From Schmidtea polychroa (lineage: Eukaryota), in NCBI GenBank assembly GCA_044892525.1, contig CM097885.1, positions 37,510,001-37,574,000 of the forward strand: a stretch of 64,000 nt of DNA. The letters are read 5' to 3'. Numbering within the stretch: the first letter of the stretch is position 1; every line of letters starts with the position of its first letter. This document shows, piece by piece, positions 1,690 through 58,348 of the stretch. Under the pieces are notes generated by a model. It did no database searches. It was not told where the DNA came from and was given only the letters and a program-made list of their open reading frames with translations. The position numbers and the translations under genes were made by a program.

Positions 1690-3400
1690 AAAGAGACTGA
1701 TTGAGGGTCAAAATAATGATATTGTCTATTTGATCTGACTCAATTTTATCTTTCAGCCATATCAAGATGTGAGCATATGGTAGTCCTCTCTTTTGCCATC
1801 CAACATCGTGCTGGTCCGAATACATGACTCTTGGTAATAATATTCATCATTTTTATGAGTTTTTGTCTAAAGACAAGTGCCAAGAGATCATGACGGTCGG
1901 AATGCGTTTGACCAACCAAGAGTTCTTGAATTTCTTGCCACTTGGGATTGCAGGTAAACGTTACGAATAAATCTGGTCTTCCGTAGTTTCTCACATATAT
2001 CATAGCATCTTGTGTATATTCGTGCATTTGACTTGGACTTCCAGTAAAGGTAGATGGAAGTATTACTAACTGACCAACATTATCTGTGTTACCATCATTA
2101 GCTATTGCCTCTTTCAGATGAATATAGTTTCTTTTGATTGAATCGTATAAAGTGTAGTCGCTCACTTTCAATCTTGGCATACATATCAACCACAAACTGG
2201 TGGAAAAGTTGGTAACACCTTAAAATGTGATTTACAGTTCCGATTCGCATCATTATTCTGTAAGCATAGAAGTCCATAGCCGATATTTTTTTGCGATTGA
2301 CAGGCATTTCAGTTGTTGAATCGGTTTGCATAAAGAAGAAATTATAGTCATCTTCTTCCTGTCAAAAGATGAGAGGATATTGCAAGGCATATGACCCGTG
2401 TGTTTCTGATACTCTTGGTAACTGATTGTTTTTCTTCTCTAAAACGATTTCCCGCTTGTCAAATTCATTACCAACAATGACGATAGCCACTTCATTTGTC
2501 AAGAGTTCATTAAGTCGCCGCGCGTGTTCACAGACAGGTTTCTTATTTGCTTGAATGACGACTCTGAAATCATCGGAAGGCATTCGTTCCAGACTAGACT
2601 TGAAAATACGAACATAGTCATTATGCTGATGTAGTATTTGCTGTAGTTCCGTAACGATATAATGCCGTGTACCAGGAATGTTATTGCAACGTTGTTGTGC
2701 TTCTTGTCGTGCGTACCCCATAAAGTAGATTTGAAGGAACTTAGGCTATTCATTTTCGTTTGGTACCAGAGATCCTACACGATGATAGACTTGACCTTGA
2801 ACCTTGAAAGTAGACATAAAGCCTGCTCACATATTTTCTTTGTGGCACCAAACGACACCATTTGAAAGCATGAGTTGTACTTTCTAATGTTGTCCAAGAA
2901 GGGCTTCGACTTTGATGTTGTTCTTGACATTTGTGATAACAACGGTTTAGGAGGGGCTGAAGCAATGGTAATTTTGCCTTACCATTGGAGCGACACATAC
3001 CTGGTGGTTCGCAAAGACACTTGAATGCATTACAATATGGGCGAATATTCTCCATTCTCCCAATATCAAGTTGAGGATAGCTGTCATAATTTTTAGATAT
3101 ATCATATTAAAATTCTTCTCGTTCTTTTAATATCCAACATGCTGCTCTTGTTGTAGAACACCTTGTTTGATCACCATCACTTCGAACTTGTTCTTGTTCT
3201 GGTGTCTCAGCTGCTCTTGCACCTGCATGTCTGGTTCGATCACCATCCCGCCAAACTTGTCTTTGTTCTGGATTATCAGTATTTAGGGATACTGCCATTC
3301 TTCTCGCCTCTGATGTGCTTCTTCCGAAAGAACTTCTTTTATGTCACTTTTTGTGATATTGTTAACAACTTTTAATTTTGTTTTCTCATCTTCTCATTTC
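1690..3400 (-). mobile_element. Helitron Rep-helicase pseudogene (5' half)
   Basis: Frameshifted fragments in the correct order: RAAETPEQ-type repeats, Cys cluster EPPGMC..NGKAKLP, AMDFYAYRIMMR, QFVVDMYAKIE, LPSTFTGSP..MHEYTQDAM.YVR.YGRPDLFVTFTCNPKW, and the HUH-region QKRGLPYAHIL. Truncated before the helicase. Confidence 0.9.
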
Positions 3401-9726: not shown

Positions 9727-12700
9727 TTAATTTGCGTAATAATCGACATCGTCGTCATCGTCATCATTGTCAGCGTCCATTTCGTCGTCGTCACTCTTCA
9801 TTTCTTCTTTTTTCAGTCGCTTATGAACACTTTTTCGAGCGGATCTCGGAGGAAGACTATCAGAAGCTTGAGATAACTCATCATCGAAAGGTCGAATCTT
9901 TGCTGATTTGTGAGCAATACCAACTGATGTGGCGGCGGCGGCGGCGGCTTGTTGATGTGCGCTGGAAGAGTCTTCTGCAATTGTAATAATAGCGATTATC
10001 GGTTATTTATCTGCTGTGATAATTTATCAAGGATCAATGAACTGGGATTAAGTGGTTAGCAAGAATGATATAATTCCATTTCTGTTTTATATTCGAACTT
10101 ATTGTGAATGCAATTTTAATAAGTAGTTGATTATCTATTATATTTTCAATAAAATTATTGAATATTGATTATATTGTCGATAAAATTGTTAATTATTGAT
10201 TATTTTTAGGTAAATGTTGATTATTGATTGCATTTAAAATTAACATTGAATATCTATTATATTTTCAAAAAATTTTTGAATATTGATTATATTTTAGGTT
10301 TATTGATTGCATTTTTAAATAAAATTATTGAATATCTATTATATTTTCACAAAAAAATGTTGAATATTGATTATATTTTAGGTTATTGATTGCATTTCAA
10401 ATTAATTTATTGAATATCTATTATAATTTTAAAAAATTGTTATATATCGATATTTTCAATTAAATTGTTAATTGATTATATTTATAATAAAATTGTAATT
10501 ATTGATTATATTTTAGGTAAGTGTTGAATATTGATTGCCTTTTTAAAAATATTTGTGCAATTGAATTTTACCGATTTCAATTACCGATCTCAAGTCTAAA
10601 GATGAAGGAAATTGACAATAGATCAATGGTGAGGACATGAGATTCTAATGATAAAAAAGTGACAAATGTGGTTGATTAATACAATAATCTGGTTGACAAA
10701 ATTAATAATTTTAATAATAAATAATAATTGGTCAAATTGTAAATCGATGATTCTAAAATTAAAAAATAATTTTCCGGAAATTTAGTTTTCCTTGTGAATC
10801 CAAAACTTTGGAATATATAAAAAAAATGTTTTAAAATGACCGCGCCGAAATTTCAAATATTTAAACAACTCAAAATTGCCTTAGAAATAACCCAACTAAA
10901 AATCTGATAATTTTCCCTGTTTATATATAAATTTTTTCTTATTGATTTAAAATTATTCGTTTGAAAAAAAATTTAAAAATCAATAAAAAATATTTTCTCA
11001 AAATAACAATTTCCCTCTCATTTATAGACTAACAATATATATATATATATATATATTGGAAAAATGTTTATTCTTACCCAATAAATTTCCATAACAAAAA
11101 TCAATATTTATCTAAATATGGATTAAAGTTATAAAATGAAATATTGTCACAAAAATGTCATTTACTTTTATATTACGAATTTTATTTTCAATATGCAACG
11201 TAAACTACTTTCGACACTGCCTTTTTCAAGGATTATAAAAAGACAGTAATGAATAAAAATGAAATTTTGAAAGAAAATTAAAAAAATCAAAGATGAACAA
11301 AAAATTGATTTTTCTGATAAATGTTTGTGAATATTGTGAAAAAGATCAAAATAGATGACAGTAAGAATTCATAAAATAGTTTACAATAAATGGGAATGGA
11401 GAGTAAAATCAACTACTGAAGTGTCCATTTAAATCAATATATTTATGTCTAAAATCAATTATTTCTGTATTTTGATGTTAGTTTTTTGATTTATTAATTG
11501 ATATTAAAGGCTCAATAAAAATTCAAATTTTTTAACAAAATAAATATTACCCATTAGAAATTCAATAAAAATAATTTCTTATATACAAAGTAGATAATGG
11601 ATCGATAAATTTCAATTTGTGTAAAATCAATTATTTTGGGATTTTTGCTGTAATTTTATCCATTTATTAATTAATATTGCTAAATAGGTATTTTTCAATC
11701 GATTTCAGTATAAAATAATACAAAATGCATTAAATCAATTTAAATTCAAAAAGAGAAAATAATACAATACAAATAATTCAAAATAAATTCAATAAATTGT
11801 AAAAAGCGCCATAACTAATGGTTTTCTATATGTTCAATAATAATATTATTAATAATAATCATTTTCTAAAAATTTATTGATAAATTTCTTCTAATGTGTA
11901 AAATCAATTATTTCCCGAATTTTGATGTTATTTATTGATTTATTAATTAACATTGCAAAATAGATATTTTCCAGATAATTTCAATATAAAAATCGATAAT
12001 AATTTCTAAAAATTCAATATAAATCAAATATAGAAAATAATTTTTAATATAAAATTAACCAATAGAAATTCAATAAAATAAAAAATCCTTCAATAATAAT
12101 AATTTCCTAAAGGCCTAATACAAAATGGATCGATAAATTTCTACATGTGTGTAAATTCAATTATTTTAGGAATTTGTATGATATTTTATTGATTTATTAA
12201 TTATTATTGGTAAATAAATGCTTTTCACCTCATTTCATTATAAAAATCAATAAACATTACATTAAATTTCAAATATAGAAATTTAATAATAAAACAAATA
12301 TTAGCCAATAGAAATTCAATAAAAATTGAAAAAGCGTAAAACTAGCCTTCATCACCTTCTTCTTTGATTTTTGTATCTGACTGCTCGCCAATTTCACTCA
12401 GAGTATCGGGTTTACTGGTGGATTTGTTGTGGGACTTTGAAGAAGAGGATCCATTGATTTCCATCATTTCTAGTTTCTCGCGCGCGTTCGACCAAACCGA
12501 CTGGAGAATGATGGAATCTTCAAAGATCTGTAAAGAAAAAAACAAGGAGAGAATTGCTGCCTATCTAGGAGAGCATAAATATCCCTACCAAACTGCCGTC
12601 CATGTTGTAGGTTTGAGCATTTTTACACAATACAAAAATATCCGACTCCAAATCGTCAATGGAGCGGTATTTGTTGTCCTTCAATCGCTGACGAATTCTC

Positions 12701-15700
12701 TGAAAGTCCATTGGTTTCTTGATAATGTCATAGTAGTCTGGAAGATCTTTGCGCGATGGAAGCTTCATAAATGGCTCACTTAAAACTCTTCCATCCCTGT
12801 AGAATGTTTTTATGGACTTTTTTTATATATCGTGTTTCATACTTATCACGATAATCGATAACGATATTGAGAAGCATTTGCATCCTTTTCATCAGTTTAC
12901 TCGAAATTGGGGCACTTGGGGTGGAGCTTAAGCTACCTGGAGGACGACCGCGACCCCGTTTAACGGGAGGAGTTGGAGCAGGTGGTTTGGATGATTCATC
13001 TTCTGAGCTTCCTTCATTGATCTAATACAAATTTGACAATAAGGATTTGATTTGATTGATTTTGTTCTATTTTTAACGATTTAATTTTGAATCAATCGAT
13101 TTTTAGCAATTTCCAAATTTAAACATCAATAATTTGGATTGATTTATCGCTTATCATTAATTCTATTATAATTTCAATAAAACATAAAATTATTGATTAT
13201 CTTCATAAAAATAAAAATCAATATATTTGAATTTCGTAAAATTGAGAAATCGAAAAATATCGCTAGTTTACTTAATATTTATAATTAAACTTATTGATTA
13301 AGTCCTCAAAAAATCCGCCTCCTCATTTTCAATAGAAAATGAAACCAAACTAAAAAATTAAAATATTATTCTTATTTTCCAATAATTAGTAATTATTTTG
13401 TAATCCTAAAAATCAATAAATTTAGTTTTATAAAAATCGAATTCAAAAAATCACAAATCCAATAATTATTGATTATTACTTTATTTTTTAAATATATTCT
13501 TTAATTGTACGTTGCTTCACTTACACCAATTAAATTTACTCACTTACATGTAATTTACATAAAACCATACGTTGAAGATTAAAATATGGATTTTCCAATA
13601 TTTTGTAAATTAATTAAGATAATTAATATCTGAAATCGATAAACATATTAATTTATCGATTATTAATATTTGTAATAGATTAATATATTGAGTTATAAAT
13701 TATTATTAATAATTTAAATAGATCAATATATTAATTTATCGATTATTAATATTTGTAATCTATTAAATAAGCGAATCTCACTGCCATTTTTAACGAAAAT
13801 GTGTGATATATCAAAAATTTTAAAAATAATTGAAAAATCTTACTTTTCTTTTCCGTTTCATTTTACGATTTCTCTGGTTATCTGCGTCTTCTTCGGCTTC
13901 AGCTTCGTCGATCGCTTTTAGGAATTCATGCTCCATCAAAGCATCGGAATAATCTACTTCTTTCCGATTTCTTTTCCCGATATAGTCGTCCTGCACCTGT
14001 TGAACCTCCTCATCCAAACTGTCGTGATAATCGATATTTTCCGGAATTTCATCCGCCACCAACAAACGGTTCTTATGAACGGCTTTATTCTTTTCCGCCA
14101 ACTCCCGCTCAATATCCATTCGTTGATAGATTTCGAATTCCTCCTCGCTTCTAGCGAGCATCTGATTAATCGTTTCATCATCAGGACACTCGTCCTCATC
14201 GTCTTCCGATTCATCCTGATCCAGAAGCGCTTTCAAATAGGTTTTACGATCTTTATCTGTGGATTTCTGGTCGAACATTCCCGCTTGGATGACTTTTTCA
14301 TCGACATTCAACTTGAATCTGGCCGCTGCAAGGATTTTCTCTTCAATCGAATTGATCATGATCAATCTCAGAACGCGAACTTCATTCTGCTGGCCAATAC
14401 GATGAGCTCTATCTTGTGCTTGCAGATCCTGATGCGGATTCCAATCGGAATCGAATATGATAACGGTGTCTGCTGACTGCAAATTGAGACCCAATCCTCC
14501 TGCTCGAGTCGACAACATGAAGATGAAGAACTCGGAATTCGGCTTATTAAATGCGCATAACAAGTCTCCTCGATCTTCTGATTTAGTCGTGCCATCCAAT
14601 CTGAGATATTTGAAGCAGCGGTATTCCAGATAAGGCTGGAACAGAACATCGGGCACAATCAATACAATACCAACTACAAATTCACTATCACCTCCATCAG
14701 ATCCATTAAATGCGTCATTTGACAAAACATCAACACTCGATGTTTGGCACGCTTCAATTTCGGTAGAATACGATCGAGCAGTTCAAATTTACCCGAAGCT
14801 CTATAGAGATCAGCTCCGTGGATCTCTTTAGGAATGGGAACATTCGGCGGTGGATTTCCATTATGCATTTTCATGAATACATGTTTTGCATATTCGATTT
14901 CCACCTCAGGAAACATATACGGGTGATTACAGATTTTTCTCAATTGCATCAGCACATTGGACCACAACCGCTCGGTTCGAGCCTATTTATATTTATTTCA
15001 ATTCAATTCCGGTAACGTAACCGTTATTATGCACATAATCAATAAATAAATATTTTTAATCAATTGTGACAAATCATTCATTAATTAATTAATATAAATA
15101 ATTTATAATGATTAATAAATAAAATAATAATTGAATATTTTTAAGAATAATTATCAATAATAAAAAATCATTCATTGATTTTTAAAATAATTTATTAAAT
15201 AATTTAGTAACTAAAATAAATAATATTGAATGTTAAAATTAATTGTGGCAAATAGTTTCGTAATCAATAAATATTATTCATAATTAATATAAATTCATAT
15301 TCAACAAATATTATTCATGATTAATAAATAATATTCACAATTAATAAATATTATTCAAAATTAATAAATATTATGCATAATCAATAAACATTATTCATAA
15401 TCAATAAAAATTCACCATTAATAAATATTATTCAAAATCAATAAATATTATTCGTAATCAATAAATGTTATTCATGATTAATAAATAATATTCATAATAA
15501 TTAAATATTATTCATAATTAATAAACATTGTTCTTAATTAATAAACATTATTCATAATTAATGAACATTATTTGTAATCAATAAATATTCATATTCAATA
15601 AATATTATTCGTAATCAATAAATGTTATTCATGATTAATAAATAATATTCATAATAATTAAATATTATTCATAATTAATAAACATTATTCATAATTAATG

Positions 15701-18700
15701 AACATTATTTGTAATCAATAAATATTCATATTCAATAAATATTATTCATAATTAAGTAATCACCAAATATTATCCGTAATCAATAAATATTATTCATGAT
15801 TAATAAATAATATTCATAATTAATAAATATTATTCATAATTAATAAACATTTTTCGTAATCAATATTCATAATCAATAAATATTATTCATGATTAATAAA
15901 TAATATTCATAATAATTAAATATTACTCATAATTAATAAACATGATGCATAATTAATGAACATTATTCGAATCAATAAATATTATTCATAATTAATAAAT
16001 ATTATTCATAATTTATAAATATTATTCATAATTAATAAATATTATTCATAATTAATAAATATTATTCATAATTAATAAATAATATACATAATCAATAAAC
16101 ATTATTCATAATTAATAAATATTATTCATGATTAATAAATATTATTCATTATTATTAATTATTATGCATGATTAATAAAAATCGCATAAAATTATCGAAT
16201 GTCAATTCAAGAAAATTACTTTTTTATCTTTATCCACGGATTTCAAAATTGCACGTTTTGACTGGATATTCGAATAAACTTTTCTCTGAAGTGCGGACAT
16301 TTCACATTTAATGACATATTCGACTTTTTCCGGCAGCTGATTTTCGACTTCTTTTTTTAAGCGTCTCAACAGAAACGGCCTGAGAACTTTATGCAATCGA
16401 CGAATAATCAATAGAGTTTCTTCTTGGTTTAATTCCACTTTTTCACCACTCGATGCGAACGGAGCATTGAACCATTGCTCGAATGTGTTGACACTTTTGA
16501 ATATGTTCGGCAACAGGAAATTTAGAAGTGCCCACAATTCCGGTAATTTGTTTTGCAAAGGTGTTCCAGTCAATAACAGACGGTAAGGAGCAATATAGAA
16601 GGTGTTTAATATTTGTGTTAATTTGCAATGGTGATTTTTCATACGGTGCCCTTCGTCGATAATCATATATTTCCATTTCACCTATTTAATCGATATCACA
16701 ACATATACCAAACCTATCAATATACCTTCGACAAACTGGATTTATCTTTTATAATGTATTCATACGTAGTAAGTAAAACGTTGAATTTTGAGGTTTTCAA
16801 TTGGGCTTGCAATTCTTTACGGATTTTAGGAGAACCTTTATATAAAATTTTCTTTACACTTGGTCCCCATTTCTCAAATTCCATTGCCCAATTAGACATT
16901 GTACTATTTAAACAGATAAACAGTAAAATTCTAACTCGGATAATAAACTAAAGTATTTTTAAAGTGCGCCAATTTAAAATTAGGCATTATTTAATCATAT
17001 TAATTTCCTTAATCTTTAATCTATATATTTCAAAATCTAATAATAATTTAGAAATTGATTTAATATTAATAAATAAATCAATTTTCTAAATAATTACTAT
17101 TTCCTTATTTACCATAAGAATAGTATTGAGTATTTTCATTTTTCTAGACCGTAATACAGCCGAATTGTGGCGGATATTATTAATAATATTTGCATATTGA
17201 TGATTTTTATAATTTGTGTTTCGATCATGAAGAAATTTTTAATTTCCTTTTACTTCATTTTTTTCAGATTATATATCTTGTTATATGTTGGACATGAGAT
17301 TGAAATGAAATAGAGATAAAGAAAATAGATCAGATGAAAATTTTTCCAATATATTATCTATTTCATTTGTTAGACTTTATTTCTCTGTTTAAAAATTAAA
17401 AAATAGATTATTGATTTTTATACCTATTATTTAAACATCTCACTAAATGAGATTTAAGCAAAAAAATAACAAATTTTTCGAAATAATATTAAAAATGTAA
17501 AATTGTATTTGAATTAAATTCAAATTAACCTAAACAGAATTTATAAAGTGCTAAAATTTTGGTTTCCAAAACGATGCTCAATTTTCAGTTACAAGAATAA
17601 TTCAATGTGATTGGCTAATTTTAAGACAGAAATTTTTTTAAAACAATTATTTCCCTAACGAAAGAATTTACCAATTTTGATTGGATGAAATTACTAGAGA
17701 TAAAAAATTTTTCCAAGTTTTGCAACGACAAATAATTAAATTCAATTGTAATTTCAATCTTCGGTTATACTTAGATAAAAGTGCAAAAGAGATAAATGTG
17801 TAAAAAACTAAGAAATTTCAAGTTAATTTTCTGTAACGTTTTTTGCTATTTTTCATTAAATATTTCGGTTTATAATTACAAATTTTTAAATTATCTCAAA
17901 TGCTAATTTTACTAAATTTGATGTTGTATTTCAAGAAATATTGAAAGTTCAGATTTAATTAACCTCTGGTCTGATCATGGATTCCATAACATATCCGGTA
18001 AACTTGGATCGAATTGGCACAAAATATATTTGAATGGGAACAATTATTATAAGTTTGTTTAGTTATCATTGAAATTGAATAATTTATTTAAATATATATA
18101 AAACTGAATGAAATAAGCAAACTGATATTAATTTTGTTAATAAACATTCTTTTGTGCTCTACTTTAATGTAATATTGATTATAATGTTGGGAAATGTTTC
18201 TTTTCGGTTATTTATCGTTGAATTTTTTTTAACGGAAATATGCATTTAGATGAGGCGATATCAACAAAATGAATGAAAAATTTAACAAACCATATGATAC
18301 ATATTTGATCGAAGCCCTTGATCACTATAGTTGGTCATTAGGTAACACTATAGAAGATATTAGTAGTGGACATGAATGATAAACTGCCCGAGTGGTGTCT
18401 TTTGTGCTCTACAATACAATATTGACTATAATGTTGCTTTTCTGTTTTTTATCGCTTGTGTTTAATTTTATAACAGAAACATGTATTAGATGAGGCAATA
18501 TCGACAAAATGAAGAGTTTAACAAACTATTTTATCGGGATTTATCCAAACCTTTGATTGCTGTTATTGATTAATAGGTGACACAAATAAATATAAAGAGC
18601 GTGTTAGATAAATAATCAATTAATTCATGTTTTGTTGTTTTTAATTGATAAATCAATAAATTCTAAAGGATTATCACAAATTGAGTGAAAATATATTTAA

Positions 18701-21700
18701 ATTTATATTTTTAAATCGAATTTGAAATCGAAAAAATTGATAAAAATGCTATAAATAACAAAAAATGAGATTGGTGAATTAAGTTATTCCTTAAAATAGC
18801 CAATTACACACTATCCATCATCACTTTCATTATATTGATATATGGTGCATTTTTTAGATTTGTCACGGTTCTTTATGGTATTAATAACGTTGCTGATTCT
18901 TTGTGTTACTGATTTCGATACTATAGGAGATTTTAGTAGCGAACATGAATGAAAGATATTCCGAGTGGTATTTTTGTTTCCAATCGTTTTTGGTGCCCTA
19001 CTCGAATAAAATATTGATTGTAATGTGAAATAATGTTGCTTTTCTGTTATTTATAGTCTGTTTTTAGTTTTATCGATAAAATGAATAAAGAATTTAACAA
19101 ACCATTTGAACGCGATGTATTCAAACTTTTGATCGATATTATTGGTTAATTGGTCATACAAATAAATATAAAGAGTTTATTAGATAAATAATCAATTAAT
19201 GCATTAAATTTTGTAAAAATCAATAAAATTATAAGTTTAATATATATAATCGATTTACTGTCAGAAATATCTAATAAGTGGATAGAATATCACTGGGGGA
19301 GGTTTAAGCACAGAAAATCAATAAACGGTATAAAATACTGATCATAATAAAATCCTTGGAATAGGATTTGACAGCAGAGGATATGACGCAGCGTGGTATA
19401 TCTAGGAGTGAAGAGAAAGCCCATTGATTGAACACTCACCTAGCCAATAGATATTTCAATGTGATCTATTGGTATACTGAGTTCATCTGTAATGGGTAGC
19501 TGTCAATATGTTAATCCGATAAAACATCATTGGAAATGTATTGGTATGTGTCAAACACAGAAAATCAATACACAAAATGAAACGTGCCGTTTTAATTGAC
19601 AGTTAAAACAAACAAAAATCCAAACCTATACGCAAGGGCTAGCCAATTAATTATAATCAAGCAATCGGTTTCTATTGGACAAAAGGTATTGGTAGAGATA
19701 TATTGGTTAATGGACCACCCTATGACAATGTAATGACATTATTATTGAAATCGATAAACGGCAAGCCATTGGAGATGCCCATATGAGCCTGATATTCTGC
19801 GCGCATTGCGTCCAGCAAATAATCTATAAAGGGAATCAAAGGGGGGGGGGGGAGTAACTCGGGATATATTCAATTATGCTATTGACATTTTATAATTATG
19901 CTAATGAAATACACTACTAATACTTACGATAGCGGGACGATAATTAGAAATGGACCGTTGACCTTCTTGCGTTCCATGAGGTACGTAATCAATCCAATAG
20001 TCTGGATGGTTTTCCCTAGACCCATTTCATCAGCCAATATGCCATTGAGATTGTTGTTATAGAGCGAGACGAGCCATTCAAGACCCTTCAATTGATACTG
20101 TTTCAGAGTTCCGTTTATTAGGATCGATGCCTGCTCCTTGATTTCCTCGTGATGGGAGTGAGCCAGTGCGTAATACGATTGGATGTGTGATTTATTATAC
20201 TCATCATCCTCAGTTCCAACATGGACATCGTCGTCATTATCGTCCTCTAATACTTCATCGTAGCCTTTCATTTCTTCGTCTTCCTGGAATATTTCCAATC
20301 CTTGTTCGTCTTTCAATGACAATCTCCATTCTTCGTGTTCTTTAATCCAGGCAATGAGATTTTTCGCTTGAGGTGATTCTTCTTCGAGTCTTTCGCGAGT
20401 TGTCGGATTGAATATCGGAATATGTTCATCCTGAGGTAGCAATGCGACATAGGACTCCAATTTGCCAGCGATTATGTCTCTTGTGATATTGTTCAATTCG
20501 TTTTGCGATTTATTGAATCTCTGTGTCAGATACGCTATTATACTGTCATACTTCATCTGGCTTCGTTTTTCTTCTCTTTCTTTCTTTTTACGATGAATTT
20601 GTTCTTTTTTATGATCTTTAACCAATTTCGTTAGACCAGCAATGAATTCATCGGTTTGTTGCAACAAATAATGTAATCGCATATCTTTCTTTTCGTCGAT
20701 TAATTTTCTATATCCCTCTTCGTCCTCAGCCATCAATCTTCTCATTCTTTCTCGTTCTAATCGCTCTTGTTCTTTACGTTTATCCCGCTCAGTGTTAGCA
20801 AAGTAATTCATGATTCCTCGATTGATTTTGTTTAATTTTGAGCTGCAATTTCTATGGAATTCTCTAAATTCTTTTGCGTGCAACAAAACAGCATTAAGGA
20901 ATTCTTGATGCTTTTGACGGCGACGTTTCTCTTGCTCATGTTTCATTTGCTTTTCTAATTTTTCTGTAAATCGTGCTTCTCTGAGAGTTTGTTTCTTCGG
21001 TCGACGATATGCTCGAACATTTAATGCCGTTTCTAATGAAGTGTCTTTTTTCATGACATTTAATATTTCCTGTCTTAGACTTCTTTGCAAACCCAACAGC
21101 CGCAATGCCTTTAACTCAATTTTGAGATTCATATTTTGTGAATTGGATAGAAATGCTGATTTGTTTGTCAATTCATCTATTCTTTGTATTATCCTTGCTT
21201 CAATTCTATTTTCTCGTTCTCTTAACAACTCTTCTGGATCTAATGCCTCTGGTCTTCGAGCTTGCTTAAATAAAGTTTTCCCACATGATGCTTTAATATC
21301 TCTCTGAACCCTTTGTAAAACATCATTATTATTAGAATTTGTTGTCGTTGCTGGATCAGCTTGCCTATTTGATATATTTTGTAACTGATTAAGTTTACCT
21401 TCAGCTGCCATTATAACTGCATTTGATACAGGATTAGACTTTGCTAGTAATTTATAAGCATTAATTTGCGCACGAAGTTGTAATAATTGATTGTTATCAA
21501 AAATTCCTTTTTTAGGAACAGTCGGTTGAGAAGCTGAACTAGCTTCAGGTGGCATAGAATTCTGGGGGAAATTGTTTACAGGAGGCATGTAGTTACCAGA
21601 ATTGACGTTAGAATTATTTTGATTTGGAATTTGCATAGTAGCTATAGGATTATTGATAGGTGCGTTTATAACCTGAATATTGGAACAAGTAGCTGGAGAA

Positions 21701-21747
21701 GCAGGCATTGGTTGATTTGGACCAAAACCATTGTTGTTTGCATACAT
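9727..21747 (-). CDS. brm: SWI/SNF chromatin-remodelling ATPase brahma (SMARCA2/4 orthologue), 9 coding exons, ~1449 aa
   Basis: Exons read by hand with GT-AG and consistent phase: 21747-19928, 16903-16726, 16681-16220, 14982-14692, 14635-13844, 13021-12843, 12796-12589, 12527-12356, 9974-9727 (sum 4350 nt). Domains: QLQ, HSA, BRK, SNF2 ATPase ([40 protein letters not shown]), SnAC (RKEVDYSD), AT-hook KRGRGRPP, bromodomain ([13 protein letters not shown]...NAQTYN). The last exon junction is less certain. Confidence 0.95.
10110..10560. repeat. Degenerate ~75-bp tandem repeats in the last brahma intron
   Basis: Recurring ATTGAATATCTATTATATTTTC...TTGAATATTGATTATATTTTAGG units. Confidence 0.7.
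11380..12330. repeat. Degenerate ~240-bp tandem repeats in the last brahma intron
   Basis: About 4 recurrences of GATAAATTTC...TGTGTAAAATCAATTATTT...TTATTAATTAA...AGAAATTCAATAAAA. Confidence 0.65.
15250..16165. repeat. ~19-20-bp AT-only minisatellite (TAATAAATATTATTCATAAT) in brahma intron 3
   Basis: Dozens of near-identical units read directly. Confidence 0.9.
18130..19230. repeat. Three degenerate internal duplications in brahma intron 1
   Basis: TTT(T/G)GTGC(T/C)CTAC...AATATTGA.T.TAATGT recurs near 18150, 18400 and 18990 with similar downstream sequence. Confidence 0.6.
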
Positions 21748-23535
21748 TATTGACTGATACTTCCTTTTTTAATTATTCGAAGATTTTACACCTAAACAAT
21801 ATGATTTACAATAAAATTTAAATTATACAATTAAAATAAAAATAAGAAAATAACAGACATATTTCTTGCTATAAATATAAATCAATTAAGACAATAAATT
21901 AAACTAATACTATCACAAAAAAATTTAATTAATTTAAAAAAAATTTAAAGTATAGTGTATACAATTTGATCAGACATGTTATAATTAATATTTAAACAAA
22001 CAAAATGTACAGAACGAATTGTATGCATTTAAATATTATAAAAATTAAAAACAGTAAATATAAAAGAAATTGAAATTTTTACTTTGAAGTAATTCTTATT
22101 TATCTTGAAATATTTTAATTGTATAATGAAAAGAATTTTTATATTATTAATTAATGAAGTCCGTATTTTAAGCAATAAATAATCAAGCAAAAAGAACAAA
22201 ATACTCAATTTAAACAAAGACTTTTCTTAAATTTTTATTATCATTACTACACACGAAAGATTATTAAATCCTAAGAGATAACGAAGGTCCAACGTTAAGA
22301 CTACTAAAAATAAATCGATCACACCCAATAGAACTTCTGGTATTACATGTTTATTATTTTGGTGCATCTTAGGGAGCTCTAAATTTAGCCTCTGTCCTGG
22401 GTACCAAAATACTTTCCTAAGGCCCTGGCTGACATGACTAGTTTATTAGGTGCTGCTTCAATCATATTTGTCTGACACTCCCCATTTTAACCGAGTTTTT
22501 TAAATTAAGTTTCTTATTTAGTCACACAAGGCATATAGATGTGGAACAAAAAAGTAAATTTTTTAGGAAACCAAATAAAAAATATCATAAATCATCAAGT
22601 AAGATACCTTTTTATATTATCACTCAAATTAACTAAACAATCTATCTTGGCCCAGAATAAGTTTTAATACAAACTGGGCGGCCGATCAACGTGTTACTGA
22701 TCTTCATTGAAACATATTATAATACAATGCACTTCTCTTTATGTATTATAATTGTTATGTATCGTAACAAATGTATACGAAAGGCAGTGTCAAATACCAA
22801 ATTGTTTACTTTCTACTTAGAAATTTAATTATATATAATATTAGAGTTTCTAATACTAATTATCGTTTGTAGAAAAAACCGATCACAGTTTTCAAAACAG
22901 ATAATTGAATTTTCAATTTTTGTTTAACAATTTTATTCATAACCAAGACTTTCAAACATTAAATCACCTTGCTTTTGTACAAATTTCTTTTATGGGTTCT
23001 AATCATCACTGGTTTATTAAAAATGTTTGAGCAGGGATTCGGTCTTATCTGTGAGTTCTAATGGATATGAATCCGAATGACTTTCCAAATTTCGCCAGTG
23101 TTCGGCCTAAATTTAATAGTGTCATTTTTCTCAGAAGCATCTAAATGTTGGGGTTCAGTAGGAACCGGAATTGAAGGTTCAAAATTAAATAATAATTAAT
23201 TAGAAGTATGATAGAAATAGTAATTAAAAATTACCTAAAATAGAAATTAAATACTAAAATTAAAACTAAAATATAATTAGTAATAAATAATTACTAAAAA
23301 TAGAATTATAGAAATTATTTAAAAATATATAATAAAAATAGTAATTAAACAATTACTATTAATAGAATTAGGTAAGTAAAAAAAATTATATAAATAGCAG
23401 ATGAAAATTAGATTGAGGGAGGAGAGAAAACGATCGGATTAAAAGTAGTTCAAAGCAAAAGTCGACCTAAATCAAAACTGATTAGCTCGCATTAAGAGAC
23501 AGATAGATACAGATAATCATTTAACAGACTTAGTC

Positions 23536-24228
23536 AGTAGGGTATTGTGTGGAGTCGGGAACAAAGACATATGACGTCATCAATGACGTCACAAAGACAT
23601 ATGAGTCATACCCCCAGAGGAGAATTTTTTAAAACAAAGACCATGACTCATCGTGATGACTCATCGTGATGACTCATCGTGGTGACTCATCGTGGTGACT
23701 CATCGTGATTACTCACCGTGATGACTCATCAAGGTCATATTATTATTTTTAAAAAATATTATTATTTTATTTTTAAATATTTTCAAAGTTCCCGCCAACG
23801 AAAATTATTCATCGATAGCTCATTTTAAAGCTCAATCCAAGACCTTTCGAATGAGCTATTGAAGGTATCATCATCATTAATATTGACAAAGTTATTAACA
23901 AATGATGACCACCTTATTTTCATAGTGAAATTATTATTATTATTCAAAATATTATTAGTGGTCCAGCGGAGTCCTGGTTTTCGTTTGCCCAAAAGTTATC
24001 GTTCCAATCATTTAATTTCATTGTTCGATAGCTCATTTTAAAGCTTAGTGCAAGACCTTTCGAATGAGCTATTGAAGGTATCATCATCATTAATATTGAC
24101 AAAGTTATTATCGTTTTCCCGAGACCATTTTCAAGGTCATATAATTATTATTAATCTATATACTCCGAGTCTATCCGACAAAATATTCTGTCCCTCTATG
24201 GGTACAGTTCGTAAGGGTACTGGTCACG
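23536..24228 (+). mobile_element. Terminal module 1 (putative Polinton-like terminus) with CRE/AP-1 array
   Basis: Begins AGTAG. Contains two TGACGTCA sites and 13-bp GTG(A/G)TGACTCATC tandem units. From CAAGGTCATATTATT to GGGTACTGGTCACG it matches 56210-56713 on both sides of the gap there. Confidence 0.55.
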
Positions 24229-24446
24229 NNNNNNNNNNNNNNNNNNNNNNNNNNNNNNNNNNNNNNNNNNNNNNNNNNNNNNNNNNNNNNNNNNNNNNNN
24301 NNNNNNNNNNNNNNNNNNNNNNNNNNNNNNNNNNNNNNNNNNNNNNNNNNNNNNNNNNNNNNNNNNNNNNNNNNNNNNNNNNNNNNACCAATATGAATAT
24401 AGTTTTCAATGTGTATCAAATCAAAACTCCTATTTTATAGTCTATC

Positions 24447-24480
24447 AACCAATCAAAATCATATGGTAGTAATATAAATA
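24447..24480 (+). promoter_or_regulatory. CCAAT box + TATA box of the Bcl-2-like gene
   Basis: AACCAATCAAAATCA at 24447-24461 and TATAAATA at 24473-24480, about 30 bp before the ATG. Confidence 0.5.
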
Positions 24481-24508
24481 AAGCAGTATATTTTAAATTA
24501 ATTTAGAA

Positions 24509-25037
24509 ATGTCGCAACCAAATTTTAGTGAAAATGTTCTAAACGGAATTGTCACCGCGAATATAGTCGACAGCCTCAATTTCCTGATCAATCGAACTGA
24601 ACAAATCATTGAAGGTGAACATATCGATTATCAACAAATGATGGAGATAGAATCCCTGGAAACCAAGAAGTTATACTTCAATAGAATATTTCAGTGTCTT
24701 TTCGATGAAGACATGAAATGGACAAGGATAATTGTAGGATTCACCTACATGAAGATAATCATTGCAAAAGGTCAACATGACTCAGAACATTATTATCAGT
24801 GGTCTTTAGAAGTAAGATTTCTTTTATAATCTATATTTTATTAATATTCATTTCTAGATAATCAAGTCCAAGTTTACCCCATGGATAGAAGCCAATGGCG
24901 GATGGGGTGTATTAAATAAACTGGCCTGCAATTTTAAAGAAACTGATGAAATCAAAAGAAAAATGAAAAACTATATAAAACTTACAACTGGAGTTGTTAT
25001 AATGTATATTTTCTGTAGATATATGAATAAAAATTAA
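24509..25037 (+). CDS. Bcl-2 family protein, 160 aa, two exons (24509-24811, 24858-25037)
   Basis: 46-bp phase-0 GTAAGA...TTCTAG intron. BH1-like LFDEDMKWTRIIVGF in exon 1; BH2 FTPWIEANGGWG and hydrophobic tail LTTGVVIMYIFC in exon 2. Confidence 0.85.
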
Positions 25038-25419
25038 TGTTATTGTTTTTTAATAGTATATTTAAATGAAAATAATTCAATTTTAAAATTTATTAACACA
25101 TTCGTAATCGTCATCTCCACATTTCATTATATTTTCAACGACATGATCAATACAATCATTATTAATATTATCTTTAGGTTCCTCTATAGGTTCATAGATT
25201 TCTGGAAATCAATGATTTCAAATCATCTTATTTGTATAAAAACTTTCCATATTAACTGACGTGTTATTTTTTGTAAATAAAAGAAAAAAAGTCCAATTTT
25301 GTATAATGCCCCAAATATTTATTATATACATGCATTTTTTTCAATTCTCTTCCCTCCTAGAAAAATTGTCTACTTGGTAAAAAATATTTTTGCCGCATCC
25401 CGCCCATGCTTGAACATAG

Positions 25420-29998: not shown

Positions 29999-32623
29999 CA
30001 GGGGTTCCCAAACTTTTACCAGTCGAGACCCACTATTTAGACCGCAAAGTTTTCGCGACCCACCTGCAAATAAAACAAGAAAAAAGCTAAAAATGTTGAT
30101 TTACATATTTATTTAACACGCATATTTAAGAATAATTAATAGGATGAATGAGATGAATGAGCCTGCTTTCTATTTTTTGCAATAACATCTTCGACATCTA
30201 CTTTTATATTTGTTGTTATTAAGCGAAGTGAGTTTGATAGCTGTAATTTGTTGCGATATTTATTTTTTATTGCAATCATTGACGAAAATGCAACCTCGCA
30301 TAGATAAGAAGTTGTGAAAGGAAGCAATACTTTTAACGCTGCGGTGTGTAAAGTTGGATATGTGTTTTGCACCGATAACCAAAACTGTAACAATTTCGTA
30401 CCGTCAAAATGTAATTTAACAACACTATCTTCGAATAGCTCAATTAATTCCTCATCCGCTATCGTCGATATACCGGTAACTAAACCACTTTGAAATGGAT
30501 TTTGAACCCATGTATATTTTTCTAGATTTTTCATTTCTCCATAGAAATAAAAATCAAAATTTTCTTTAAGTCTGTCCAAATGCTCAATTATTAAAGAAAT
30601 TAAATCGTTATTGGGCGTTACTTCATTTTCAATGATAAAAGTTTGGAATGTATCAAAGCAGTCATATTTATTTTCTTGAACATTATTTTTCCACAACATA
30701 AGTTTTTTTGTAAAAGCTTTTATTTTACCATGAACCGAAAATATATCAATTCCATTTGTTCCTTGTAATTGTAAATTTAAATCGTTCAATTTCGAAAATA
30801 TATCTGCTAAATAAGTCAGCAAAACTACATATTTCACATCGCGCAAATTTGATGTGTACTCATCTTGTTTATGTTCATGTAAATATATTGCTACTTCTTC
30901 GCGAAGTTCAACAAGTCTTGTCAGGACTTTGCCTTTCGATAGCCAGTGGACTTCTGTATGCAGCAGAAGAGATTTATGTAAACTTCCCATCTCTTCGCAG
31001 AGTTTTTGAAATAATCGTGATTGTAATGGTTTGCTCTTAATAAAATTTACAATTTTTATAGCAGTGGTCAAAACAGTATTTAGACTTTTTGGTATATTTT
31101 TGGATACTAACGCTTCTCTATGAATAGTGCAGTGAGTCCACGTTGCATTTGGACATTTTTGAAGACAACGTGTCACAGCACCACTGTTTTTACCACACAT
31201 TGCTTTTGCACCGTCGCTACATATTCCGACGCAGTTTTTCCAATCCAGTTTTTTCAATGTTATATAAGTGTCGAGCGTATCAAAAATTATTTCACCAGTT
31301 CCTCGAATGATTGGTTCACAAAATAATATGTCTTCAAAGAACTCGTTGCACCATATAAAACGTATGAAAATAATTAGTTGGGACAAACCTTGTACATCAG
31401 TTGATTCATCCAGTTGCAACGCAAAAAGTCCACTAACTTGAATTCTATGGATAAGCTTATTTTCTACCCATTCGGACATTTCATCAATTCTACGAGCAAC
31501 TGTGTTATTAGAAAGTGGAATTGATTCAACTTCTTTTAAGCTCTGCTCTCCAAACATAATTCCAACAGCATCTTTTATAGCTGGAAGTACTAATGACTCT
31601 CCAATAGTGTGCGGTTTACCGGATTGTGCAATTCGCAAACTAATGAGATACGAGGCGAACATAGCCTTTTCATTAATGCTGATGAAGCGAGAAAATAGAT
31701 TTTTTGAATTATTTAATTCCTGTAATTTGGTTTTAAAATAATCAATAGGCTTATTTTTTAAATCGGAATGTTTCGTCTCAAAATGTCGTATTAATTTGTT
31801 AGGTCGCATACTTTCATTAGCCAGAATTTCTTGACAAATAACACACTGTGGGCGTGGATCATCTTCTTTTCTATTCCATGTAAATCCAAATTTTAGATAT
31901 TCAGAATCATATTTTCTTTTGCCACGTTTTGATGATTGCGAACTTGTTGAAGGATTCTCACCAAATTTTCTCTTATTATCTGTTTTTGTTGCTACAGAAC
32001 CTTCTTTTTCTTTTTCATTTTCAATTGTTTGATTTTGCCCAGGAGTCTTTTTCAACCACATATCCATCGCAGCAATGGTTCTTTAAAAATAAGAATATTA
32101 AGAACTTTATTTATTACATGAAATACTATAGCACTAAATTTAAAAAATACTTACATTTGATTTTAAATTATGTTTTTTTATTAACGAAACACTTTTATTA
32201 ACAATATATATAAACTTTTTTATTAACAACACAACACCGTACTTAGTCCAAAACAAAATTTGCACTGGTTGTCTGAATATTTAAAGTTTGTAATCCTAAA
32301 TTTCTAATTAACCGTTATTTGTGTTTGGTTGCCTGGTTAAAATGTAGAAAAGTGGTTGCTATGATGCGATTATTAAAAACAAGTTCTAAATACAAAAATT
32401 TGCTAAAAAGAAGTTTAATTTTTAAACCACCTAAAAATATGCAATAATTTTTTGTCGCAAACCTACTTATATATAAATATTGTGACAAGTTCAGTAAAAG
32501 CAAATTAATATGCTCAGTAATACAAATATTAAATTTTTGGCTAAATATTAAATTTTTGGCGACACACCGAAAATAGCTTCGCGACCCACCAGTGGGTCGC
32601 GACCCACACTTTGGGAACCGCTG
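29999..32623 (-). mobile_element. Full-length hAT Buster/Charlie-type transposon
   Basis: TIRs CAGGGGTTCCCAAA / TTTGGGAACCGCTG with perfect 8-bp TSD GTTTATAA (29991-29998, 32624-32631). Subterminal GCGACCCAC repeats. Confidence 0.95.
30136..32067 (-). CDS. Buster/ZBED5-like hAT transposase, 643 aa, open ORF
   Basis: BED-like CVIC...RHFETKH, LQLDESTD, CSDGA, CTIH (CxxH), EVHWLS and YLCEVAFS. Confidence 0.92.
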   Translation of the reverse strand: MDMWLKKTPGQNQTIENEKEKEGSVATKTDNKRKFGENPSTSSQSSKRGKRKYDSEYLKFGFTWNRKEDDPRPQCVICQEILANESMRPNKLIRHFETKHSDLKNKPIDYFKTKLQELNNSKNLFSRFISINEKAMFASYLISLRIAQSGKPHTIGESLVLPAIKDAVGIMFGEQSLKEVESIPLSNNTVARRIDEMSEWVENKLIHRIQVSGLFALQLDESTDVQGLSQLIIFIRFIWCNEFFEDILFCEPIIRGTGEIIFDTLDTYITLKKLDWKNCVGICSDGAKAMCGKNSGAVTRCLQKCPNATWTHCTIHREALVSKNIPKSLNTVLTTAIKIVNFIKSKPLQSRLFQKLCEEMGSLHKSLLLHTEVHWLSKGKVLTRLVELREEVAIYLHEHKQDEYTSNLRDVKYVVLLTYLADIFSKLNDLNLQLQGTNGIDIFSVHGKIKAFTKKLMLWKNNVQENKYDCFDTFQTFIIENEVTPNNDLISLIIEHLDRLKENFDFYFYGEMKNLEKYTWVQNPFQSGLVTGISTIADEELIELFEDSVVKLHFDGTKLLQFWLSVQNTYPTLHTAALKVLLPFTTSYLCEVAFSSMIAIKNKYRNKLQLSNSLRLITTNIKVDVEDVIAKNRKQAHSSHSSY

Positions 32624-35879: not shown

Positions 35880-37910
35880 TTGAGTATCTAAAAATCAATT
35901 TGCACAGGGCGCTTCGACACAATTAAGGCTCACATTTTTAGAACTTCATCCAGACCTAATATATGCAAATAACATGATATTAGTGGAGCGCATTAATCCA
36001 GTCGAACATTGTTAAATCCAAATTTTCAAACTCCACTGTATCTGGATATTTTATAAATTTTGTTGTGTCTTCAAAACTTTCTAAACTGAACAAAACGCAC
36101 TGAAAATAGTTCGAGGGTTGCGTCGATTGTCTCTAAAAATAACAAAATATGAGCTTCTTTGACAACGGTTTCTTGGATTTCTATTTCAGTATAAAATCTT
36201 TTAAGTCTTTGAAAATATCGAAACTCTTGTTTTTCCAAATCACGTTTGAAAATTTTCAACTTCTTTTCAAATGCTTTTATAACGTCAAAAGCCTTGTCAA
36301 CGGTTTTTCCAAAACTTTGCAACTTAGTGTTAAGTTCATTTAGATGTGAAGTAAAATCTGTAAAGAACATTAGTCTGCTGAGCCAGTCAACATCAGTTAA
36401 CTCTGAATACTTCTGTTTGTTGTCTTCCATAAACATTCGAATTTCAACAAGACATTCCACGAAACGTTCCAGCACACGACCTCTGCTAAGCCAGCGAACA
36501 CTATTGTACATTCGTAACCCAGAGTAAACGGACTGTACTTCATTTAACAGCAGTTCAAATTTTATCTTATTCAAAGCACGAGTAGTAATGAAATTTACAA
36601 TTTTTGTTACAATTTTCATAACATCTTCAAGTTCCTTCAAACCAGATTTTGCACACAAGGCTTCTTGGTGCACAATACAGTGAAACGCAACCAGTGGGTG
36701 TCCAACATGTTTCGTAAAGAAATTCACGAAACCCGAATCTTTTCCAGTCATACTTGATGCACCGTCAGTAGTTACAGAGACTATTTTATTTACGTCTAAA
36801 TCTGCATTTTTACGTTCATCCACGACGTTTTGGCATATTTCTGCACCCGTTGTTGTTCCAGATAATTTGGTTAGTTTTATTAGTTCTTCGCGCATTTCGT
36901 TTTCTTTCGGATATCTAGCAATGATGGTTAATCGAGCAGAGGCTGTTACATCAGTACTCTCGTCCAGGCAAATAGAGAAGGCCTGACATAACTTGATGTT
37001 TTCTTTTAATTGATTCTCAATATTTGAATTCAAGTTAATTATTCTCTCTTTTACTGTATTTAGACTAATAGGCAGATCTTTCATTCGTCTTTATTTGGAA
37101 AATCTTCAAACAAATATGGCTCAAATTCTAGCAAAGTTTCTTTGATGTAATCACCATCACTGAAAGGCTTGCCATACTTAGCTATTATTTTGGAAACTTC
37201 AAAACTTGCAGACACTAAATTAGATGTACTTTTAACAAACTTTACAAACGAACAGGAATGTAAATTTGCATTTTTAACTGCCGCAATATATATTCTTTTT
37301 GTTCATCCTCGCTTTTGCCAAGAAGCCACTTGTGATTACTTTCATAGTGACGTTTAACTGAAGATGTTCGACAAACAACGCTTTCAGAACACAAGACACA
37401 CAAGGCCTTACTTTGTTAGTTGATTATCCATATCGTTCAGTCCACCAATCTTGGAATTCCCTGCCACTTCCTTCCTCTGAATGTTTTATTTTTTTTTGCT
37501 ATGAACACGACATTTTATTTAGCAAAATTTCTATTTTTAAATTATTAAATATTTACAAAAAAAATTCAATCCTTCACCAATAATAATGTCAACAAGATGT
37601 CTGCGTCATCAAATTCGTGCGCATCTTAACTTGTTTATTTTTACTTGTTAAAACAAATTCGGAATATACAAAAAATGATAGAAAATAATTTATAGATTTA
37701 ATCATAAGAAATATATATTCTGCCATCTGAAAATGACCTATTGTTCGATTCCTAGTTAACGGTTTCTAAATTATTTGCACAATAAAATCATGCTGAAGTG
37801 TTAAATTGCGATTTCAATGATTTTATACTACTAAAATTTACACAAATTTGTTTTATCCAAAGGTTTGGCGTGCCACTTTGGGCACGCGTGCCATAGGTTC
37901 ACCAGCGCTG
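35880..37910 (-). mobile_element. hAT (EPM2AIP1/GTF2IRD2, OposCharlie-like) transposon, frameshifted
   Basis: 5' terminus CAGCGCTGGTGAACCTATGGCACGCGTGCC at 37910. ORF 36071-37084 has SICLDESTD, VTTDGA, CIVH and VRWLSRG. N- and C-termini are frameshifted and the 3' TIR was not found (possibly in the gap). Confidence 0.85.
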
Positions 37911-55468: not shown

Positions 55469-56713
55469 AGTAGATGGATTGGGCACCGCTAGCACAGGGC
55501 ACCGCTAGCACAGTACCCCCCTCCCCCTCCCCCGGTCGTAAAATTTTTAAAAAATTCTAAGTCTAAAAGTACATTTTTTTTCAAGGTCAAATTTGAACAA
55601 AGACATATGACTCATCAAGGCCATTGAAACAAAGACCGTGACTCATCCTATGACTCATCAAATTTCTCAAGGTCATTTAAACAAAAACCATGACTCATCC
55701 TGTGACTCACCAAGGGCGTTTTCAAGGTCATATGACTCATAATATGACTCATCGAGGTAAAAAAATTTCCAAGGTCATTTAAACAAAGGTCATGACTCAT
55801 CAAGGTCATTTTCAAGGTCATCTGGGTCATCCTGTGAGTCATCAAGGTCATTTTCAAGGTCATATGACTCATCCGATGAGTCATAAAAATTTTCAAGGTC
55901 CTTTAAACAAAGACCGTGACTCATTCAAGGTCATTCTCAAGGTCGTATGACTCATCCAAGGTCATTTTCAAGGTCATATGACTCATTCAAGGTCATTCTC
56001 AAGGTCATATGACCCATACTATGACCCATCAAAATTTTTCAAGGTCATTCTCAAGGTCATATGACTCATACCATGACTCATCAAAAATTTTCAAGGTCAT
56101 TTTCAAGGTCATCTGAGTCATCATATGACTCATCAAGGTCATTTTCAAGGTCGCATGACTCATCCAAGGTCATTCCCAAGGTCATATGAGTCATTGCGAT
56201 GAGTCATCAAGGTCATATTATTATTTTTTTTATTATTTTTAAAAAATATTATTATTTTATTTTTAATTTATTCGAAGTTCCCGTCAACGAAAATTAATTA
56301 TCGATAGCTCATTTTAAAGCTCAATCCAAGACCTTNNNNNNNNNNNNNNNNNNNNNNNNNNNNNNNNNNNNNNNNNNNNNNNNNNNNNNNNNNNNNNNNN
56401 NNNNNNNNNNNNNNNNNNNNNNNNNNNNNNNNNNNNNNNNNNNNNNNNNNNNNNNNNNNNNNNNNNNNNNNNNNNNNNNNNNNNNNNNNNNNNNNNNNNN
56501 NNNNNNNNNNNNNNNNNNNNNNNNNNNNNNNNNNNNNNNNNNNNNNNNNNNNNNNNNNNNNNNNNNNNNNNNNNNNNNNNNNNNNNNNNNNNNNNNNNNN
56601 NNNNNNNNNNNNNNNNNNNNNNNNNNNNNNNNNNNNNNNNCTATATCCTCCGAGTCTATCCGACAAAATATTTTGTCCCCCTATGGGTAATGCTCACAAG
56701 GGTACTGGTCACG
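55469..56713 (+). mobile_element. Terminal module 2 (putative Polinton TIR) with AP-1/nuclear-receptor motif array
   Basis: Starts AGTAG, then a GGGCACCGCTAGCACA direct repeat and a C-tract. About 20 TGA(C/G)TCA and about 20 CAAGGTCA by hand count. The tail is shared with module 1. Lies next to the RING and pPolB genes. Confidence 0.55.
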
Positions 56714-56821
56714 CTCAACAACTCACAAATCAACAAATCAACAAAACATACATTTATTTAAACAATAAAATAATGTAAAATTAACAAAGGTAAACTAAAT
56801 ATTGATGTACTACTATTTGTC

Positions 56822-57358
56822 TTACATGTATATAATATGATATTCATTAATCAGTGTTGAACAGGCTTGACACTTGCGAACACTCTTCTCGTGACACTTA
56901 GAACAAACAATTACGTGACCACACGGTAAATAAAAAACCGAAACTCGATTTTCTTTACAAATTGAACAAGTTAAATACCTTTTCTTAACATCGTTCAGTT
57001 TTTTCGTTAGCTTATTTTCAATCAAATCGGCTTTCGCTATCCATTCATAAATCAATCTACTATATCCCGGTTTCAACCTTAAATACATACAACTCCAAAA
57101 GTATTCATTCAGTGAATCGTTGTTTACCACTGTTTTTTCTAAGAACATTAAATAACAAGATAACTTGAAAATGGATTTCTCATAATTAAATAAGTAGGTA
57201 GTTAGTAGCCCGCGGGAACAATAGGGGGGGGGTAAAAATGTTGCAAACTTTTGATTGCATAACTTTTTCCTAGACATTTTTTGATTACATAATGCCGTAA
57301 TGCCCAATGTTTTCTGGGATTTTAAATACAAAATTTTTTTTTTCAATAAACAAGCCAA
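56822..57358 (-). CDS. IAP/MDM2-type C-terminal RING protein without BIR (true start uncertain, possibly M at ~57145 or spliced)
   Basis: C-terminal CSICKENRVSVFYLPCGHVIVCSKCHEKSVRKCQACSTLINEYHIIYM* matches the IAP-like RING spacing and ends a few residues after the last Cys. Confidence 0.75.
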   Translation of the reverse strand: MACLLKKKILYLKSQKTLGITALCNQKMSRKKLCNQKFATFLPPPYCSRGLLTTYLFNYEKSIFKLSCYLMFLEKTVVNNDSLNEYFWSCMYLRLKPGYSRLIYEWIAKADLIENKLTKKLNDVKKRYLTCSICKENRVSVFYLPCGHVIVCSKCHEKSVRKCQACSTLINEYHIIYM

Positions 57359-57519
57359 GGATAAATATTATTTGGGTGGGTCTCCTTGGTCCTGAGAATT
57401 TCAATAGAAAAAGGTAGTCTTCAATAAAAAAGCATGGATTTTTCACACAATAGTGAGGGGATCTTCTTGGTCATGAGAATTTCAATAGAAAAGGTGGTTT
57501 ACATTAAAAACGCATAGTA

Positions 57520-58283: not shown

Positions 58284-58348
<65 letters not shown>

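Follow-up and report, generated by a model that had tools for sequence, protein, structure and literature searches.

We consider it fairly probable, judging from sequence, that positions 24509–25037 of the 64,000-nucleotide stretch of Schmidtea polychroa DNA analysed here (the window) hold an intact, two-exon, Polinton-borne Bcl-2 gene that was likely captured from the host and likely encodes a membrane-anchored pro-survival protein. Such a gene would represent a traceable capture of a host cell-death gene, in which the source paralogue, the loss of the family's intron and the likely gain of a new one can all be read within a single genome.

Gene structure, splicing and family membership

The unspliced open reading frame (ORF) encodes 106 aa. 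Removal of a 46-bp intron joins it to a second exon and yields a frame of 160 aa, which agrees with the hidden spliced gene proposed in the first-pass annotation. The gene comprises the following features:

24473–24478, + strand: TATA-like box TATAAA, 30 nt 5' of the ATG
24509, + strand: ATG of the Bcl-2-like gene
24509–24811, + strand: exon 1, 101 codons, with predicted helices 1–5 and the start of helix 6
24716–24727, + strand: BH1-like KWTR, in exon 1
24812–24857, + strand: intron, 46 bp, GT..AG, phase 0, GTAAGA..TTCTAG
24858–25037, + strand: exon 2, 59 codons and stop (25035–25037)
24882–24905, + strand: BH2-like WIEANGGW, in exon 2
about 24972–25016, + strand: predicted tail anchor, in exon 2
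25026–25031, + strand: AATAAA inside the last codons (Asn-Lys), a candidate poly(A) signal

The compact layout described previously, in which the TATAAA precedes the ATG by 30 nt and the AATAAA overlaps the end of the coding sequence, is thus present, as is the BH2 motif in the second exon. Hydrophobicity of the predicted C-terminal anchor is only moderate: the stretch is short, has basic flanks, and reaches a best 15-residue Kyte-Doolittle mean of 1.64 and a best 19-residue mean of only 0.91.

The first-pass annotation had suggested that the 24811/24858 junction be sought in RNA, and we found it (24811>24858, GT..AG) in one contig of run X1 and one contig of run X2, both from a single study and both RNA according to the tool's guess; it was absent from the 3576 contigs aligned from the DNA-like run X3, and run X7 yielded no aligned contigs here. 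Alternative donors and acceptors would give products of 135–157 aa and were rejected, as the contigs show the 46-bp intron only. Run X1 also contains unspliced pieces of the Bcl-2-like gene. At 11 sites the entire X1 depth bears a different letter than the window, which places the origin of this RNA in sister copies or in another strain. RNA of this gene family is spliced, and the spliced contigs are not assignable to the window copy.

On similarity grounds we place the window gene in the multi-motif Bcl-2 family (PF00452). Exon 1 alone matched the Pfam Bcl-2 model with an E-value of 0.0037 and 18.2 bits, below the cut-off of 31.4 bits because BH2 does not lie in exon 1; the cut-off was passed by an intronless relative from element lineage D (32.7 bits) and by the host paralogue L045 (46.3 bits). 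In a sequence search of the PDB, the best matches to exon 1 were Bcl-2-related protein A1 and Bak (E-values 0.05–1.3). KWTR aligned with the NWGR of A1, with Thr at the Gly position and both Trp and Arg retained, and the previously noted replacement of BH1 NWGR is therefore confirmed. When a profile of eight relatives was searched against the PDB, 24 of 25 matches were Bcl-2-family chains, including A1, Bak and a schistosome Bcl-2; the top match was a repeat protein whose score is a sum of weak stretches. HHalign comparison of the same profile with five host Bcl-2 domains returned a probability of 92.7%, and the nearest Atlas clusters of exon 1 bear PF00452 (0.92, 0.90 and 0.90).

Models of the exon 1 fold were of low confidence, with a pLDDT of 50 without an alignment and, with an eight-row alignment, an all-helical model with a pLDDT of 59 and a pTM of 0.36. 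Foldseek returned nothing at E <= 0.001; VIA-align matches all fell below Z = 5, and the 50 listed included no Bcl-2 chain. With models this weak, neither result counts against the fold. Searches of protein databases yielded only three close exon-1-like proteins and two host-type orthologues (P0004 and P0010); a further candidate, the repetitive Thr/Cys-rich mollusc protein P0005, was set aside as a likely false match. Since Trichoplax Bcl-2L4 and mouse Boo are listed as accepted family members that also lack the BH1 Gly (PMC8998228), having KWTR instead of NWGR does not bar Bcl-2 membership.

The Maverick/Polinton context and its lineages

A 27-nt BH1 probe with one mismatch allowed hit 303 places in the 781-Mb genome, compared with none for the control, and a genome search with exon 1 produced 2384 candidates, of which the 150 scored were each 95–100% identical. 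Complete elements carrying the gene have ends of the form AGTAGGG..CCCTACT, and four of the five end pairs examined were flanked by matching 6-bp duplications. These elements encode a Pox_A32 ATPase (E 2e-7), an rve-chromo integrase (rve E 6e-7, just under the cut-off), Peptidase_C5/adenain (E 4e-5) and a TBP, as well as ORFs of 426 and 360 aa between the integrase and the adenain and an ORF of 1366 aa. In Pfam, the 1366-aa ORF matched Endonuclease_7 only and no polymerase, and the 426- and 360-aa ORFs gave no capsid match; from size and place we presume the former to be the polymerase, and from size and order the latter two are presumptive capsid genes. Mavericks/Polintons are described as having a 6-bp target-site duplication and terminal inverted repeats whose ends read AG..CT (PMC8097293), and the gene set reported for Mavericks/Polintons/adintoviruses matches that of these elements (PMC8502044; PMC8097293).

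At loci L031/L033, an inverted repeat of 1396 bp (97%) includes the Bcl-2-like gene at both ends. The gene is found at one end only in L020, where the end with the polymerase-sized ORF is without it, and in L076/L077. Among the 92 exact matches listed for contig C1, there were six convergent and no divergent pairs less than 20 kb apart, with 0.6 pairs of any kind expected. The Bcl-2-like gene therefore sits just inside the end of high-copy Maverick/Polinton elements, and the view that it is element-borne is borne out. A Burro LTR element was considered as the carrier and rejected, the gene context being that of a Polinton.

Several loci exhibit noteworthy variations in architecture. A single insertion of ~38 kb with the matching 6-bp duplication TACCCT (G000:C2:131864366-131902353, L016-L020) consists of three head-to-tail units of ~11 kb, each with a Bcl-2-like gene. 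Palindromic elements with inverted duplications of 1.7–4.6 kb are found at L025-L030, L072-L073 and L111, and these duplications place a copy of one end's genes (Bcl-2-like, orf141, TBP or a portion of the polymerase-sized ORF) at the opposite end. The element's own TBP gene adjoins the Bcl-2-like gene at L026:9401-9889, L076:4166-4567 and L067:897-1316 (Pfam TBP E 1e-15). A 400-bp piece at L071:2496-2896, with inward-facing element ends on both sides and located inside a longer inverted flank, is a possible miniature derivative.

The window copy lies in a remnant of one element end:

23530–23535: TTAGTC, 6 bp adjoining the element end on its left side, where the left copy of a target-site duplication is expected
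23536–25202, + strand: Maverick/Polinton end remnant (terminal inverted repeat and Bcl-2-like gene), 1.7 kb, beginning AGTAGGG like complete elements
23572–23728, + strand: seven TGA(C/G)TCA and two TGACGTCA words, partly in a 13-bp tandem repeat
24229–24386: run of N inside the remnant
25198–25395, + strand: unrelated dispersed repeat of ~200 bp abutting the remnant break (40 of 1333 candidates scored, 81–90% identity)

Over 24387–25202 the remnant is ~99% identical to 14 other loci, and it ends abruptly at 25202. Neither a partner end nor any other part of the same element was found within the 64-kb window. The window copy is thus a truncated end that is not mobile on its own and in which the gene is intact. 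It differs from five other copies at 0–2 of 529 bases, indicating that it is young. A host SNF2/Brahma-type gene (QLQ, HSA, BRK, SNF2, helicase C and SnAC) lies at 12342–21768 on the - strand, 2.7 kb from the Bcl-2-like gene.

The diverged Bcl-2-like genes of the genome form at least seven sequence groups (A–G). Polinton genes adjoin groups A–F, as well as G at two of its three loci, and many copies carry stops or frameshifts; the set of integrase, ATPase and adenain also adjoins lineages B, D and E. A GT donor is present at the identical codon in A, B, C, E and F, the rows of G lose similarity there, and lineage D is an intronless read-through. The donor position, the TATAAA and the 3' AATAAA recur in sister lineages at 73–84% protein identity, with the TATAAA at a similar distance in B, C, E and F, but missing from D, and the AATAAA at an equal place in A, B and C. 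All seven element lineages lack the BH1 Gly. The seven intron-bearing rows formed a starred clade (97/96) in an LG+G4 tree built without L047; when 21 rows were analysed with the default mixture model, this clade was not recovered. Both trees omitted the multi-exon Bak-like loci L046 and L048, and of 909 Pfam candidates for Bcl-2-like genes in the genome 150 were scored.

Using the Nei-Gojobori method on single copies, we obtained a dN/dS of 0.12 for exon 1 (A versus B, 96 codons; silent sites were saturated against C) and of 0.12–0.39 for exon 2 between lineages. The capsid-sized ORF and the ATPase gave 0.10 and 0.07, respectively, and close copies within lineage C gave values near 0.7–0.8 on few changes. 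Across element lineages the gene shows strong purifying selection. Together, the recurring donor, TATAAA and AATAAA and the low dN/dS of both exons argue that the structure of the gene is beyond chance.

A host source and comparison with known systems

The likely source of the captured element gene is the lineage of L045 (G000:C1:268544059), a host Bcl-2 paralogue present as a single copy (next match 48%). No element genes were detected in two stretches of ~10 kb flanking L045. All eight element proteins examined scored best against L045 or the orthologue-like P0004 and P0010 (27–83 bits), compared with at most 17 bits against other host or Burro-like domains, and the element and host group together formed one side of a tree branch with support of 74/78, unstarred. 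L045, P0004 and P0010 resemble the element gene in their non-Gly BH1, a W-S-x-E..PW..NGGW stretch and a tail anchor, which in the element gene is a prediction. L045 differs from it in being single copy, in having an intron after GGW and none in helix 6, and in being only ~23–29% identical to exon 1. At a separate location, a cluster of seven near-identical Bcl-2 gene copies with a canonical NWGR was found at G000:C4:89.9-90.8 Mb (L034-L040).

The BH1 sequences of L045, P0004 and P0010 are RWSR, KWSQ and KWSR, none of which has Gly; one orthologue is also without Arg. As a non-Gly BH1 is common to L045 and its orthologues, KWTR was likely inherited. The divergence of BH1 remarked on in the first-pass annotation is thus real; taking it as a sign of viral divergence probably does not hold, since the host L045 group also lacks the Gly.

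The intron positions bear on the route of capture. Splicing of L045 after GGW, across an intron of 2972 bp, was seen in three runs from two studies (X1, X2, X7) and not in X4, and a boundary after GGW is described as conserved in pro-survival Bcl-2 genes (PMC8998228). The element gene is without this usual intron and has its own at a position unused by the host paralogues examined. The missing intron suggests capture through a spliced copy, and the simplest reading is capture of such a copy followed by a single gain of a small intron. Transfer in the reverse direction, from element to host, would require the host to have regained the canonical intron. The genes of intact vertebrate Mavericks are reported to be without introns (PMC8097293).

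Bcl2 and IAP homologues have been noted in adintoviruses, the animal Mavericks/Polintons, by Starrett et al. 2021 (PMC8502044); Bcl2 cargo of these elements is therefore already in print, and the present gene adds to a type of cargo known before. As here, the Bcl2 of adintoviruses is an accessory gene accompanying an integrase, an FtsK-type ATPase, adenain and a polymerase-sized ORF, and in the supplementary maps of that study Bcl2 labels likewise occupy the first or last place of a row (PMC8502044). In contrast to adintovirus Bcl2 as reported there, the present gene is spliced, is sometimes doubled in an inverted repeat, and has a traceable host source. Within the incomplete text of one supplement to that study, Schmidtea, Dugesia, planarian, flatworm and TBP are not named, and the string 'splic' is absent from the main text (PMC8502044). 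We found no description of a planarian Polinton Bcl-2, its source or its intron in the literature searched, which covered supplements in part and had most subscription journals and Repbase outside its scope.

Adenovirus E1B-19K is likewise a small pro-survival viral Bcl-2 homologue, and its virus shares adenain and the capsid type with Polintons (PMC7022251). An Atlas cluster with PF01691 on 20% of its members gave a weak match (0.85). In contrast to E1B-19K, to which no sequence match is shown, the present gene traces to the animal's own paralogue, which makes a capture separate from that of E1B-19K likely. A BCL2-like motif has also been described in Burro, a group of giant LTR retrotransposons found in planarians (PMC6431247); like the elements studied here, these are planarian mobile elements with a Bcl-2-like domain. 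Bcl-2-like domains resembling those of Burro occur in this genome within ORFs that reach about 3050 aa. Unlike the Polinton gene, the Burro domain belongs to a retroelement polyprotein, and it scored only 1–13 bits against the Polinton proteins, which probably reflects a separate capture or extensive divergence.

Possible functions and the surroundings of the window copy

We regard a pro-survival role through BH3 binding as a reasonably likely function of the predicted protein. The BH3 motif is Leu-x-x-x-Gly-Asp. This motif was absent from predicted helix 2 in every lineage, consistent with the earlier remark that BH3 is unrecognisable. Pro-death members are described as requiring BH3, and viral Bcl-2 proteins as mostly pro-survival (PMC7022251), and these two points together favour the pro-survival direction; the earlier caution that sequence cannot decide between the two directions was fair. 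We propose that a host Bcl-2 paralogue was captured via a spliced copy and that a common ancestor of most lineages then acquired a new small intron in a single event. The protein would fold as a Bcl-2 bundle, its tail would place it in the mitochondrial or ER membrane, and it would bind host pro-death proteins with an altered, narrower selectivity, Thr replacing the BH1 Gly. By analogy with adenovirus E1B-19K, mitochondrial apoptosis would be blocked, and the host cell would survive during replication of the element or virus.

The replaced Gly is also the starting point for a different, less likely but possible role, in which a protein with the Bcl-2 fold does not bind BH3 in the usual groove and instead damps an innate-immune or autophagy signal, or serves as a decoy with a dominant-negative effect on the host's pro-survival proteins. 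Mutation of the BH1 Gly to Ala in human Bcl-2 is reported to abolish both Bax binding and protection (PMC5841437), so that Thr at this position may mean no BH3 binding, and the same G145A protein is described as a dominant negative (PMC5841437). The Gly is absent from all seven element lineages and from the host paralogue, with one orthologue also lacking the Arg, and viral Bcl-2 folds that target NF-kB or autophagy are known (PMC7022251). However, the BH1 Trp and Arg, BH2 and the predicted tail anchor are all retained, and mouse Boo, which has Ser in place of this Gly, is described as altered in selectivity, with no mention of lost binding (PMC8998228). We think it improbable that the protein is instead pro-death and Bak/Bax-like, serving late release of virus particles. 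Bak constructs rank first among the Bcl-2 chains in the profile search, but the scores of Bak, A1 and the schistosome protein fall within 3 bits of one another; adintoviruses are reported to have other membrane-active genes (PMC8502044), but here no BH3 is recognisable, the structure of the source gene is of the pro-survival type, and a lethal gene would be costly given hundreds of intact copies and spliced RNA.

Two further readings concern whether the gene serves the element at all. A functionless passenger that spread through its position at the element end would fit the observation that the ends are the most often kept part of the elements, and the ratios within lineage C are those expected after insertion. 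Between lineages, however, dN/dS is about 0.1–0.2 with silent sites near saturation, and the splice sites and TATA box are kept; dN/dS largely refutes this reading, which we consider very unlikely. It is scarcely credible that the gene is an ordinary host Bcl-2 orthologue beside Brahma, as its proximity to the SNF2/Brahma gene and its intron might suggest. The copies are dispersed over 303 places, the window copy has an element end and element context, and the host counterpart lies elsewhere; the ordinary conserved host orthologue that the first-pass annotation named as an alternative was thus not what we found.

Returning to the element-borne pro-survival protein that we favour, its clade of Bcl-2 proteins with a non-Gly BH1 can now be probed by RNAi in an animal that regenerates, and in which Polintons are described as targets of piRNAs that lose their silencing in the course of differentiation (PMC8532177). 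The sequence upstream of the gene is also of potential relevance. We take TGA(C/G)TCA and TGACGTCA to be AP-1- and CRE-like consensus words. The seven TGA(C/G)TCA words observed compare with a mean of 0.09 and a maximum of 2 in shuffled sequence, the sites being non-independent given the tandem repeat. Of the 32 such words in the window, 28 fall within the ends of its two Polintons, and at least five were present in 11 of 15 family-A loci; lineages C, D and E had no AP-1-like words over 1200 bp of upstream sequence. Our guess is that the words in the terminal repeat could form a stress-responsive enhancer. A more far-reaching proposal, which we offer as a long shot, is that a captured non-canonical Bcl-2 behind a stress-responsive AP-1 array, in hundreds of cassettes, provides a wound-inducible pro-survival pool, one that would influence cell death where tissue regenerates, in addition to a separate capture of the Burro type.

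The end remnant, AP-1-like array included, is located ~1.8 kb upstream of the SNF2/Brahma-type gene and might affect its regulation. A second, diverged Polinton occupies 55600–64000 of the window and continues into L081:1-5720. It contains a polymerase-sized ORF at 58541–62467 that is 62% identical to that of family A, a C3HC4 RING gene at 56822–57277 that recurs in inverted orientation at the other end of the element (~1.5 kb, 90%), and 21 TGA(C/G)TCA words at 55608–56200. Elsewhere in the window, hAT-type transposase ORFs and Helitron fragments are found at 30136–32067, 36071–37084 and 1746–3055, the label of the ORF at 36071–37084 being presumptive.
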